DNA from: a virus
Taxonomy: Duplodnaviria > Heunggongvirae > Uroviricota > Caudoviricetes
IMG/VR virus record: IMGVR_UViG_2585427970_000001
Strand: one strand, 5' to 3'
Length of the DNA: 64,000 nucleotides
How positions within the stretch are numbered: the first letter of the stretch is position 1; the number at the start of each line of letters is the position of its first letter. The translations under genes were made by a program, and so were the position numbers. The notes beneath the pieces were generated by a model. It had not been told where the DNA came from, made no database searches, and was given only the letters and a program-made list of their open reading frames with translations. Shown piece by piece: positions 41,707 through 45,410 of this stretch.

Positions 41707-42851
41707 GTTCACAGATAAAACACTCTCCAGGAAACCCGGGGCGGTTCATACTGGTAAAGGTGTATGGACTGTAGTACCGAAGGGCTTTCGTCTGGGAAGT
41801 GAAGAAGCTCTCGCCGGTGAACACGCAGATCATCTTCTGTATATTATCGATGAAGCCTCCGGTGTCAGTGATAGAGCTTTCGGTATCATCACCGGTGCTC
41901 TTACCGGACAGGATAACCGCATCTTATTACTGTCACAGCCTACACGCCCAAGCGGCTATTTCTACGATACTCACCATAAACTGGCCAAGCGTCCTGGTAA
42001 CCCTGATGGCGTTTATACGGCGATCACGCTTAACAGTGAGGAATCACCGCTGGTAACGCCAGCATTTATCAAAATGAAGCTGGCGGAGTACGGCGGGCGC
42101 GATAACCCTATGTACATGATTAAGGTACGCGGCCTATTCCCTAAATCACAGGATGGCTTCCTTCTTGGACGTGATGAGGTTGAACGTGCAACGCGGCGGA
42201 AAGTCAAGATTGCCAAAGGATGGGGCTGGCTTGCATGTGTGGACGTTGCTGGTGGTACGGGAAGGGATAAGTCCGTTATCAATATCATGATGGTGTCCGG
42301 CCAGAGAAATAAACGCCGTGTAATCAACTATCGAATGCTGGAATACACAGACGTTACAGAAACGCAGCTTGCCGCCAAAATTTTCGCAGAATGTAATCCT
42401 GAGCGATTCCCAAATATCACCATAGCGATAGACGGCGATGGGCTGGGTAAAGCAACAGCGGATCTGATGTACGAGTATTATGGTATTACCGTACAGCGTA
42501 TACGCTGGGGTAAAAAGATGCATAGCCGTGAAGATAAGAGCCTGTACTTTGATAAACGTGCTTATGCCAACGTTCAAGCCGCAGAGGCCGTAAAATCTGG
42601 TCGTATGAGACTGGATAAGGGTAATGAAACTATTGAGGAAGCGTCGAAAATCCCTGTAGGGATTAACTCCGCAGGTCAATGGAAGGTGATGAGTAAGGAG
42701 GATATGAAGAAAAAACTCAACCTGCACTCACCAGACCATTGGGATACATATTGTTTCGCTATGCTGGCGGATTATGTTCCCCAGGACGAAGTGCTTAGCG
42801 TCGAAGACGAAGCGCAGGTTGATGAAGCTCTTGCATGGCTTAATGAATGAA

Positions 42852-42870
42852 TATTTGCTCTAATAAATTG
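42852..42870 (+). promoter_or_regulatory. C1 operator-like site just downstream of pacB
   Basis: ATTTGCTCTAATAAATTGT immediately after the pacB stop. Confidence 0.4.
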
Positions 42871-43000
42871 TGTTTTTTAACTACCGATGTTACATTGAAC
42901 CTGACCTCTTGCGCCTTGAGGCATTTTCGGTTTATGCTTATCAGGCACCTCAGTAAAACGGGTGCCGGGATTGGCCTCCCGCTTAAGTCTAAGGCGATAC

Positions 43001-43025
43001 AGACGCCGCTCGCGTCTTTTTTTTG
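43001..43025 (+). terminator. rho-independent terminator downstream of pacB
   Basis: AGACGC-cgctc-GCGTCT hairpin followed by a run of 8 T. Confidence 0.55.
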
Positions 43026-43189
43026 TATCGGCGTACACGCACACCTCTACAATGGTGGGCTGTATGGGGCTACCTTCGGGTAGGCTGGTTACCTTGGACG
43101 CCAGTAAGGCCAACTCCGTACAGTCCACCGCCAGCAAGATTGGTCTCTTCTGCGGTGGTTACATACCAACGTCTAAGGAGGCTGCCAAT

Positions 43190-43411
43190 ATGGCTACTAT
43201 CCCTACCCCAACTCATCCTGAATTTATCTGGCGCTTTTACTCCTGCCAAAAACGTCACTATCACTTCGTTATTGCACCGACAGAAGATGAGGCACGTTCT
43301 CAGCTTCCTGACGCCCCATGTATTTTCTCTGCCCGTTTTTCCACTGATTCACGCAATTCTCTCAGTTACTGGTGCCTCCCTGTTAACGCTTCTGCTCAGG
43401 AGGGACTATGA
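43190..43411 (+). CDS. small hypothetical protein, translationally coupled to the antirepressor-like gene
   Basis: 73-aa ORF MATIPTPTHPEFIWRFYSCQKRHYHF...; strong RBS AAGGAGG 8 nt upstream; its stop overlaps the next start (ATGA). Confidence 0.5.
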   Translation: MATIPTPTHPEFIWRFYSCQKRHYHFVIAPTEDEARSQLPDAPCIFSARFSTDSRNSLSYWCLPVNASAQEGL

Positions 43412-44526
43412 GAACATCGTTAGTTACCCGTGAAGAGATGATCGAGGCAATTGAACAGCACACTGCCTGTATCAGTACCAGGGATATACCAGGCGTTATT
43501 GCCAACTACTTCATGATCACCAAACAACTTTACCGGAGAAAGGACAAGAACGCGGTTCACCGTATCCTGTTGTCTGATATCCGCGAATACCTGCTCGAAC
43601 AGGGTCATCTGAATTACGCAACCGTCGCAGCCGAATCACGCAAGGAGGCACACAGAATGAAAGCAACTAACGTTAAATCAGAAAAAATTCATGCACCTTC
43701 AGTTCAGGAATCGGAGCTGGTGGTTGTTCAGAATCAGTCTGATGAAATTCCCGTTCTGGAATGGCAGGGAGTGCGTGTAGTGACAACCGAGACTCTTGCT
43801 AGAGGGTATGGGACAGAAACAATCCGTATTCGCCAAAATCATCATGAGAACAAAGTACGCTTTGTTGAAGGGAAGCACTTTTTCAAAGTTGAAGGAGAAT
43901 CATTGCGCGAGTTGAAGCACAGAGTAGCTTTAAACTACTCTGTAAAAATTGCTCGCAATGTTCGCTCACTCACCCTCTGGACAGAACGCGGCGCAGCCCG
44001 CCACGCTAAAATGCTCGAAACCGATCAGGCATGGGCATTCTTTGAAAAACTGGAAGACAGCTACTTCCGGCAAAAAGAACAGCAACCGGTTGCAATCCCC
44101 CAGACGCTTCCAGAAGCTCTGCGCCTGGCTGCCGAACTGGCTGAACAAAAGCAGCTTCTGGAACAGAAAGCCCACCAGCTAAATCAGCAGCTGGTGGCCG
44201 CCGCTCCTAAAGTCGATTTTGCCGACCGGGTATCAGTAGCTAAAGGGATCCTGATTGGGAATTTTGCAAAGGTTGTTGGACTTAAGCAAAACGCGCTGTT
44301 TGCCTGGTTACGGGAGAACGGCATCCTGATAGCGTCCGGTGGACGTAAAAATGTGCCGTTCCAGCAGTACATCAATGCGGGGTATTTCACGGTGAAAGAA
44401 GTGGTGCTGGATGATGAAGATGGCTACCAGATACGGTTGACGCCTCAATTAACGGGTAAAGGCCAGCAGTGGTTGACGCGTAAACTGCTCGATGCTGGCT
44501 TGTTAAAACCGGTGGCGGCTGAATAA
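43408..44526 (+). CDS. antirepressor-like protein (ORF6N-type N-domain plus KilA-C/Ant C-domain)
   Basis: 372 aa; WQGVRVVTTETLARGYGTETIRIRQNHHENKVRFVEGKHFFKV resembles ORF6N; C-terminal DFADRVSVAKGILIGNFAKVVGLKQNALFAWLRENGIL resembles the phage antirepressor C-terminal domain. Confidence 0.7.
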   Translation: MRTSLVTREEMIEAIEQHTACISTRDIPGVIANYFMITKQLYRRKDKNAVHRILLSDIREYLLEQGHLNYATVAAESRKEAHRMKATNVKSEKIHAPSVQESELVVVQNQSDEIPVLEWQGVRVVTTETLARGYGTETIRIRQNHHENKVRFVEGKHFFKVEGESLRELKHRVALNYSVKIARNVRSLTLWTERGAARHAKMLETDQAWAFFEKLEDSYFRQKEQQPVAIPQTLPEALRLAAELAEQKQLLEQKAHQLNQQLVAAAPKVDFADRVSVAKGILIGNFAKVVGLKQNALFAWLRENGILIASGGRKNVPFQQYINAGYFTVKEVVLDDEDGYQIRLTPQLTGKGQQWLTRKLLDAGLLKPVAAE

Positions 44527-44533
44527 TGGAAGA

Positions 44534-44555
44534 ATGCCCGGTTGATGCCGGGCAT
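44534..44555. terminator. hairpin between the convergent antirepressor-like gene and c1 (possible bidirectional terminator)
   Basis: ATGCCCGG-ttgat-GCCGGGCAT with A/T-rich flanks on both sides. Confidence 0.5.
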
Positions 44556-44558
44556 AAT

Positions 44559-45410
44559 TTATTGCGCGCTTTCGGGGTTGTCGTTTACTGGCTGCCCCTT
44601 CTTGGTTTTACGGCTGCGCGTAACTGATGCGGCTGACTTAACCTTTTTCTCTTCGCGAGTGATGGCAATTTGTTTTTTTACATTTTCAATATCTGCCAGG
44701 CGATATATTTTTGCTTGCGGCCAGCGGTCGCAGATGATCGGTTCTATGGAGTCATAAAGGCTAAATTTTGCTTTTTCGAATTCACCGTTGATGATAATTC
44801 CATCACGGAGAGTTTCATCGCAGATAAACACGCCACACAGTGGCACATGGTAACTAACTGATTTACCATCATTGTAGTTAGGGCTACTGGAAATGTAGTG
44901 GACGCGCAGCATTGTTTCGCTAAAGCCGTGTACGCGCATACGGAATTTTTCATCCTCCGGGTACTGCCTCATTAGCTCTTTTGTTGCTTCCAGGTTCTCT
45001 ATGTATTTCGCACTGTGCTCATTGATCCCCGCGCTTTTTTGGATGCGAATGTCCTTATCAATCAGATGAATAATGCGGCCAGCGGTCATGTTGACGCTGT
45101 TCACAGCTTCTGTCTGATAAGTTGTAACCTTGCGCACACCGCGAAGGATGTTAGGCACTGGATATAAAATAGTCTTTGGGATATTGAGGTCTGGGTACTG
45201 TTCCAGTTCCCGCGCCATTAAAGTCCATTTATCAATTTCAGCCTGAATGCTGTCAGTTTCTTTGAACGGTAGAACGACAACCGGGCGTACAGGACGACCG
45301 TCGCTGGCTGTATCAACGTGTTGGGCGCGTGCAACAGCTTTTTTTAGAAAGAGATCCCTGAAGCTGACGAACTCCTGGTACAGTTGTTCGCCGTAGACAT
45401 AATTTATCAT
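44559..45410 (-). CDS. c1: C1 repressor of lysis (primary immunity repressor)
   Basis: 283-aa MINYVYGEQLYQEFVSFRDLFLKKAVARAQHVD..., matching P1 C1 as I recall it; operator-like site in its upstream region. Confidence 0.95.
   Translation of the reverse strand: MINYVYGEQLYQEFVSFRDLFLKKAVARAQHVDTASDGRPVRPVVVLPFKETDSIQAEIDKWTLMARELEQYPDLNIPKTILYPVPNILRGVRKVTTYQTEAVNSVNMTAGRIIHLIDKDIRIQKSAGINEHSAKYIENLEATKELMRQYPEDEKFRMRVHGFSETMLRVHYISSSPNYNDGKSVSYHVPLCGVFICDETLRDGIIINGEFEKAKFSLYDSIEPIICDRWPQAKIYRLADIENVKKQIAITREEKKVKSAASVTRSRKTKKGQPVNDNPESAQ

Follow-up and report, generated by a model that had tools for sequence, protein, structure and literature searches.

What is encoded by the additional DNA that lies between pacB and the c1 repressor gene of a P1-like (Punavirus) plasmid prophage, and how might it bear on C1 immunity? 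The question is raised by the IMG/VR record IMGVR_UViG_2585427970_000001, from which a stretch of 64,000 nucleotides was analysed as a whole (the window, to which all unqualified coordinates refer). The interval between the pacB and c1 stop codons of the window, 42851-44558, holds about 1.7 kb more than the corresponding interval of P1 (NC_005856), in which pacB ends at 93206 and c1 at 93231, leaving 24 bp between them. We consider it likely that this interval is a self-contained immI-type cassette, a paralogue of the P1 c4-icd-ant1/ant2 module, which by homology to P1 immI would supply the element with a second, independently locked antirepressor of C1. This reading is built on direct observation of the individual sequence elements and of how they correspond to P1 immI by homology, of the fold of the c4 RNA, and of the complementarity and covariation of its target sites.

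Parts of the cassette and their counterparts in P1 immI

The features of the cassette, from its left to its right end, are as follows.

42854-42870, + strand: C1 operator-like site TTTGCTCTAATAAATTG, directly 3' of the pacB stop codon, the counterpart of P1 Oc4/Op51
42868-42896, + strand: candidate promoter TTGTGT-17-TACATT, assigned by its position relative to P1 P2c4/P1c4 (P51a/P51b)
42916-42944, + strand: candidate promoter TTGAGG-17-TATCAG, assigned by position in the same way
+ strand: alternative candidate promoter TTGCGC-18-TATGCT
42945-43025, + strand: isrK-type leader RNA carrying a1 and b1, with an intrinsic terminator at its 3' end
42971-42977, + strand: a1 UUGGCCU, a copy of the c4 target in a hairpin loop of the leader
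42987-42994, + strand: b1 GUCUAAGG, a copy of the c4 target in the leader
43048-43135, + strand: c4 antisense RNA between the operator and icd, mature form approximately 43054-43132
43092-43099, + strand: b' CCUUGGAC, c4 recognition element in the loop of hairpin 2
43107-43113, + strand: a' AGGCCAA, single-stranded c4 recognition element
43140-43146, + strand: a2 UUGGUCU, mRNA target 3' of c4
43171-43178, + strand: b2 GUCUAAGG, mRNA target overlapping the icd Shine-Dalgarno sequence AAGGAGG (43175-43181)
43190-43411, + strand: icd-like gene of 73 amino acids, encoding a homologue of P1 Icd
43408-44526, + strand: ant1-like antirepressor gene of 372 amino acids, coupled to icd via ATGA
43657-44526, + strand: ant2-like nested in-frame start at Met84, with Shine-Dalgarno sequence AAGGAGG at 43642-43648
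44534-44555, no strand assigned: hairpin ATGCCCGG-TTGATG-CCGGGCAT, flanked by the stop codons of ant and c1 and marking where the cassette ends on the right

An initial annotation of this DNA had described a two-gene operon at the locus, in which a 73-aa and a 372-aa open reading frame (ORF) are coupled by ATGA behind an operator-like site and a terminator and run convergently into c1, with a single hairpin at 44534-44555 between the stop codons. The coordinates were confirmed, in the case of the hairpin by a terminator scan, and both genes are present, but they form part of a whole immI-type cassette that also includes a c4 RNA and an a1/b1 leader, both detected with Rfam.

The P1 immI locus (NC_005856, 48140-49731) is annotated in the order Oc4, P2c4/P1c4, a1/b1 (putative), c4 (77 nt), a2/b2, icd (73 aa), and ant1 with ant2, and its mechanism has been summarised previously (PMC8546580). 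The window cassette matches every part of P1/P7 immI in order, strand, and spacing: a C1 operator-like site lies at the 5' end, c4 is of the same Rfam family and fold, target sites flank c4 with b2 lying over the icd Shine-Dalgarno sequence, the 73-aa icd is followed by ATGA coupling to ant1, ant2 starts 249 nt into ant1, and Ant has the same N-terminus and KilAC domain. The two modules differ in location, that of P1 lying at sim-kilA and that of the window at pacB-c1, and in leader, which Rfam classifies as c4-a1b1 in P1 and as isrK in the window. In addition, the a'/b' specificity of the window cassette (AGGCCAA/CCUUGGAC) is new relative to P1, the middle of its Ant protein is of the ORF6N type, and it has a terminal hairpin of its own. 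The 24-bp gap of P1 bears out the initial claim that the genes are absent from canonical P1 at this position. The accompanying view of an insertion into the immunity region holds in so far as the site is empty in P1, but P1 possesses the same type of module at immI. The P1 pacB-c1 spacer is unrelated in sequence to the window interval and is devoid of a comparable hairpin. The junctions of the cassette coincide exactly with the pacB and c1 stop codons; transposon-like ends or a target-site duplication were considered and rejected, as no repeats were seen at the junctions.

The operator-like site TTTGCTCTAATAAATTG differs from the P1 C1 operator consensus ATTGCTCTAATAAATTT by two mismatches and aligns with the annotated P1 Oc4. 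C1-operator-like sites with no more than three mismatches occur nine times in the window, against a chance expectation of 0.24. The candidate promoters match the annotated P1 promoters column for column in the alignment, from which promoter use at the cassette is predicted. The eight other operator-like 17-mers of the window, again with up to three mismatches, are found at 19888, 23512, 23561, 38235, 45505, 45969, 46052, and 62102, and dispersed sites of this kind are expected of a P1-type genome.

The leader matches the Rfam isrK family (RF01394) at 42945-43022 on the + strand with 60 bits, against a gathering score of 50, and folds into three hairpins, the last of which is the terminator at 43001-43017, followed by T8 (U8 in the RNA) in the terminator scan. 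The terminator placed 5' of the genes by the initial annotation is this one, which is real but belongs to the leader and lies upstream of c4. The leader found at the same place in P1 matches the Rfam family c4-a1b1, not isrK.

The c4 RNA itself is recognised by the Rfam C4 model (RF01695) at 43048-43135 with 75.9 bits, compared with a gathering score of 45 (E-value 4.7e-13). It folds into the family structure, in which a long stem closes off two hairpins and the unpaired a' segment, with a minimum free energy of -41.6 kcal/mol (z-score -4.2), which none of 200 shuffled sequences equalled. Among 14 distinct homologues, 100% of the alignment cells in the stems are paired and 12 of the 27 pairs show a compensatory change, in an alignment that had been fitted to the model. 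The ends of the mature RNA were placed by alignment to the 77-nt C4 of P1, and its release would presumably occur by processing of a precursor, which in P1 is carried out by RNase P.

The 73-aa protein is 80% identical to P1 Icd, is of equal length, and matches the NCBIfam family phage_ICD_like (NF033153) with 49.8 bits, against a cut-off of 25; Icd is annotated as a cell division inhibitor in the P1 record (NC_005856). The ratio of nonsynonymous to synonymous substitution rates (dN/dS) of icd is 0.08 in comparison with P1 and 0.02 in comparison with the phage RCS47, and icd and ant are both intact and under purifying selection, with dN/dS values of 0.02-0.10. Within the ATGA overlap, the ant ATG occupies 43408-43410 and the icd TGA 43409-43411. 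The 372-aa protein is assigned to PHROG 63 ('anti-repressor Ant', E-value 2e-132), and a Pfam search places ORF6N (PF10543) at residues 116-202 (E-value 2e-19) and ANT/KilAC (PF03374) at residues 260-361 (E-value 1e-31), in agreement with the ORF6N/KilA-C antirepressor family originally assigned to it. It is 56% identical to P1 Ant1, the conserved parts being the N-terminal ~97 residues and the KilAC C-terminus, and a motif, RKEAHRM, is invariant in all four aligned Ant proteins. The ant2 start lies 249 nt into ant1 exactly as in P1, where the two starts are at 48688 and 48937.

The Ant proteins are mosaics in which the N-terminus (~1-97) and KilAC are constant and the middle is either of the ORF6N type or of the P1 type, and the type of middle combines freely with c4 class and insertion site, as seen in the window and in loci L008, L041, L044, L075, and L086, among others. 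The middle part bears on an alternative that appears unlikely, namely that Ant targets not C1 but another repressor or DNA site via ORF6N, for example in co-resident prophages, or that c4 and icd constitute an RNA-antitoxin/toxin pair for plasmid maintenance. Such targets would fit the replacement of the middle third of P1 Ant1, a protein that has no ORF6N, and the presence of an isrK-family leader, as in Gifsy-1, whose antirepressor acts on a lambdoid prophage circuit, while the toxin variant would fit the annotation of P1 Icd as an inhibitor of cell division. However, ORF6N-type and P1-type middles swap freely between near-identical Ant proteins at canonical and extra sites, conservation extends over the N-terminal and KilAC parts that Ant has in common with P1 Ant1, and the C1 operator that heads the cassette ties it to the C1 circuit, all of which weakens this alternative.

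At the right end of the cassette, the hairpin at 44534-44555 comprises nine pairs, six of them GC, in the terminator scan, and is a probable bidirectional terminator. Of 88 examined sequences, 59 contain the exact hairpin sequence, among them modules from several c4 classes, and cassettes at other backbone sites where c1 is not downstream are closed by it as well. These observations bear on a further proposal of the initial annotation, that convergent transcription interferes with c1. If the operon acted mainly in cis, its transcription would collide with that of c1, or yield RNA antisense to it, and so lower the amount of repressor; ant and c1 are indeed convergent, with stop codons only 32 bp apart. 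Nevertheless, the GC-rich hairpin stands between the two genes and is retained where there is no c1 to interfere with, the cassette works as a unit elsewhere, and from the homology to P1 one would expect c4 to limit transcription beyond icd and to keep ant shut off in a lysogen. Interference in cis is thus extremely improbable as the main role of the operon, and modulation of C1 immunity by the antirepressor, which the initial annotation had also proposed, remains the best reading.

Target specificity of c4 and the proposed regulatory circuit

The recognition elements of the window c4 are complementary to all four of its target sites: a1 pairs at seven of seven positions, a2 through six Watson-Crick pairs and one GU pair of seven, and b1 and b2 each through seven Watson-Crick pairs and one GU pair of eight. 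In the frame used for comparing the modules, the a2 and b2 sites have offsets of 9 and 40 nt from c4 in modules with an isrK leader, including that of the window, and of 5 and 34 nt in classes with a P1-type leader, P1 included. The c4 RNA of P1 carries b' UCACUAAC in the loop of hairpin 2 and a' CUGUCAA, and that of RCS47, whose target sites match it, belongs to the class GUCUCAA/CCUUUGAC. Neither in these two phages nor in P7 are a' and b' the same as in the window, where each of the four target sites carries the corresponding changes. As the window elements are also distinct from those of the canonical immI of the closest plasmid, described below, the cassette would add a second, independent lock and key.

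The generality of this correspondence is evident from 79 icd-encoding loci collected from IMG/VR. They were searched with a c4 covariance model built from three isrK-type c4 RNAs, from which P1 was left out because MAFFT shifted its hairpin 2 by one column; the model still recovers P1-type c4 RNAs with 43-49 bits. A c4 RNA was found at a fixed distance 5' of icd in 76 of the 79 loci. Among 83 modules, 12 a'/b' classes can be distinguished, and in each class a1, b1, a2, and b2 lie at fixed offsets and are complementary to the c4 of their own module. The a' and b' elements reassort independently, CCUUUUGC for instance being combined with GUCUCAA or with GUUCCAA, and the pacB-c1 site alone is occupied by at least five c4 classes.

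Based on these parts, a regulatory circuit can be proposed. Transcription would start 3' of the C1 operator, and part of it would halt at the leader terminator to give a short isrK-like RNA carrying a1 and b1, while read-through transcripts would be processed into stable c4 RNA. Pairing of a' and b' with a2 and b2 would cover the ribosome-binding site of icd and block icd translation, and, because ant1 overlaps icd through ATGA, the block would extend to the synthesis of Ant1 and Ant2. In cells that lack a matching c4, or in which it is titrated, Icd and Ant1/Ant2 would be made, and Ant would bind and inactivate C1, an interaction predicted from the 56% identity of Ant to P1 Ant1 and the 99% identity of C1 to P1 C1. 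A resident prophage would in this way become immune to superinfection by relatives with an ant controlled by the same c4 class, and an infecting phage would carry an ant that a resident prophage without this c4 class could not silence.

The short leader RNA may have a role of its own in the circuit. The isrK-orf45-anrP locus of Gifsy-1 in Salmonella resembles the cassette in its isrK-family leader, its leaky terminator, and its ATGA-coupled small ORF and antirepressor. There, a processed RNA of ~80 nt (STnc1160) lies 3' of the leader, translation of the long mRNA is switched on in trans by the short IsrK leader RNA, the small ORF of 45 codons overlaps the processed RNA and is poorly conserved in amino acid sequence, and AnrP triggers antQ expression in a lambdoid circuit (Hershko-Shalev et al. 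2016, PMC4825925). In contrast, the 73-aa icd of the window is a gene in its own right that is conserved and evolves under purifying selection, and the circuit is that of C1 and P1, not that of lambdoid antQ. By analogy with Gifsy-1 IsrK, the short leader RNA could plausibly serve as an activator or as a decoy for c4, since its a1 and b1 are complementary to c4. Moreover, c4 might have a higher affinity for the leader copy than for the site on the mRNA, because a1 is perfectly complementary while the mRNA sites contain wobbles.

The immunity system of P4, with its CI RNA and seqA/seqC, offers a further likeness, in that a processed antisense RNA is flanked on both sides by copies of its own target. 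In P4, CI causes premature transcription termination of the replication genes, and icd-ant is not involved. The IsrK locus was itself likened to P4 immunity by the authors who described it (PMC4825925). Rfam places C4 in clan CL00128.

Several points weigh against a second, independently locked antirepressor in this element. An Rfam scan of the whole window gave a single C4 match, with no canonical immI; since the window starts at the head genes and parB/parA, the canonical sim-kilA site falls outside it, and the two-module state is therefore known from the closest relative, not from this genome. The ORF6N domain that replaces the middle of Ant might give it a different target specificity. A consensus promoter scan of 42700-44750 left the positional counterparts of P51a and P51b unflagged, and they are weak by consensus. 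The window class is alone among the 12 in using G-U wobbles at its targets (a2, b1, and b2), so repression could be leakier in the window-type allele; the other 11 classes use Watson-Crick pairs only and are perfect at a1, a2, and b2, with one unpaired position at b1 in the classes with a P1-type leader. Finally, pacB is disrupted by the insertion sequence IS629, and because pacB is broken the window copy cannot play an offensive part during infection and would be confined to the resident-side role.

Distribution, second modules, and possible portability

The cassette is not peculiar to this genome. It occupies the same site, with the same two junctions and 87-98.5% identity, in RCS47 (FO818745, gene 'ant'), vB_EcoM-673R5, JL22, and pTZ20_1P, although in RCS47 the site is occupied by another c4 class. 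Within the phage collection it was found at pacB-c1 in vB_EcoM-673R5 (98.5%), RCS47 (92%, annotated as 'ant'), and JL22 (87.5%), and it is absent at pacB-c1 from P1, P7, SJ46, and phiW39. In PLSDB, 271 plasmids carry the cassette (at least 80% coverage, 87-99% identity), and 314 have an uninterrupted junction of the P1 type. An 'ant' gene with two short hypothetical ORFs has been placed between pacB and c1 (Venturini 2019, PMC6906374), and the same paper contains, besides that sentence, a note on icd-ant of RD-1 in pSvP1. No c4 or leader is annotated at the locus in the records of RCS47 and vB_EcoM-673R5, the two phage records inspected, and the PLSDB table, which lists no RNA genes, is uninformative on c4 annotation in the plasmid pAPEC201602. 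None of the open-access literature searched describes the cassette as a full immI with a specificity of its own, or reports multiple or portable immI modules, although such an absence is weak evidence. The cassette is a common variant that has been sequenced before and partly noted in the literature.

This distribution is also informative on whether the site simply holds an immI duplicate, inert or in decay, as a passenger of recombination between P1-like plasmids. Its host element looks defective, with pacB split by IS629, its promoters are weak by consensus, and it is evidently dispensable, being absent from the 314 PLSDB plasmids with an uninterrupted junction. On the other hand, both ORFs are intact with dN/dS values of 0.02-0.10, c4 and its four target sites covary across classes, and an identity of 87-99% has been kept in 271 plasmids while at least five c4 classes occur at the one site. 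The retention of identity together with the diversity of classes argues for diversifying maintenance and not for decay, so an inert duplicate is very unlikely, and a functional immI-type cassette is the favoured reading.

A second module is directly visible in the closest complete relative, plasmid pAPEC201602 (NZ_CP127299), which is 99.4% identical to the window over the region. It carries two isrK+C4+icd+ant modules, one before kilA with the specificity GUUCCAA/CCUUUUGC (the canonical site) and one at pacB-c1 with AGGCCAA/CCUUGGAC. Cross-pairing between the two modules reaches 4-5 of 7 positions for a and 5-6 of 8 for b, compared with 6 of 7 for a and 6 of 8 for b between P1 and P7. Work by Citron and Schuster in 1990 reportedly established that P1 and P7 are heteroimmune through c4. 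The heteroimmunity of the two phages has been restated more recently (PMC6906374). As cross-pairing between the pAPEC201602 modules is at least as poor as that between heteroimmune P1 and P7, these modules should not repress each other. Multi-module genomes in IMG/VR likewise combine different classes, with the single exception of a tandem duplication. This duplication is found in locus L014 (IMGVR_UViG_2698536372_000019), where a tandem cassette at pacB-c1 has c4 RNAs of the same class at 1659-1746 and 3225-3312 and the first ant is truncated; in the same genome, other classes are represented by three or more additional modules (L080, L085, and L072).

Cassettes are also present at no fewer than four further intergenic sites in related P1-like contigs, all of them empty in the window. 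Cassettes with a P1-type leader lie between the window equivalents of 15009 and 15068 (L085 and L086), between those of 48196 and 48757 in reversed orientation (L075-L077, L082, and L084), after the equivalent of 49597 (L071, L074, L078, L081, and L083), and near ssb-lyz (L072 and L073; pAPEC201602 88147/88203).

In the four representatives inspected (L086, L076, L074, and the window), each module begins with one or two C1 operators, and the terminal hairpin ATGCCCGGTTGATGCCGGGCAT is present in three of the four, with the reversed-site L076 ending in a different hairpin. The operators at the head, the shared hairpin, and the mosaic Ant proteins across sites indicate that the cassette behaves as a portable unit extending from operator to terminator. 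A broader proposal can be put forward tentatively, with somewhat less than even confidence: the operator-to-hairpin c4-icd-ant unit would be portable and would have spread to at least five backbone sites (those named being pacB-c1, sim-kilA, two downstream of cre, one near ban/dbn, and one near ssb-lyz), it would have acquired at least 12 lock specificities by reassortment of a' and b', stacked cassettes (2-5) would not cross-react, and the isrK-type leader would act in trans as a decoy for c4.

Neighbouring genes, IS629, and biological meaning

The genes that surround the cassette in the window are the following.

38860-40053: pacA
40053-42850, + strand (3' part): pacB, starting at 40053, split by the 1310-bp IS629 at 40439-41748, with its 3' part at 41749-42850 and its stop codon at 42850
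44559-45410, - strand: c1 repressor gene, convergent on the cassette
45521-45730, - strand: coi
46564-47595: cre

Two 100% identical inverted copies of IS629, each of 1310 bp and each containing an ALIL frameshift pseudoknot identified with Rfam, are present in the window, at 40439-41748 (+ strand) and at 9468-10777 (- strand). Because one of them splits pacB, the element is probably packaging-defective; the pacB::IS629 junction was found in no PLSDB plasmid. Around the copy at 9468-10777, the window is without ~4.6 kb that are present in pAPEC201602 (30741-35338, including a gene for a Dam-family methyltransferase). The window has two tRNA genes (10780-10852 and 12298-12370), compared with three in the corresponding region of pAPEC201602, and it seems that one was removed by the deletion associated with IS629.

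The window itself adds little new biology, given that the cassette is widespread and the host element is probably packaging-defective; its meaning lies in what it says of the P1-like elements as a group. The heteroimmunity of P1 and P7 via c4 is a textbook example of immunity whose specificity resides in an RNA, and a second immI with its own c4 explains the two or three icd/antirepressor pairs that are annotated on many P1-like plasmids. The specificity of c4 predicts which P1-like phage-plasmids, many of which carry resistance genes, coexist with, exclude, or induce one another. If the proposal of a portable unit with reassorting specificities is true, superinfection immunity among P1-like elements would be the object of a combinatorial, RNA-based arms race.

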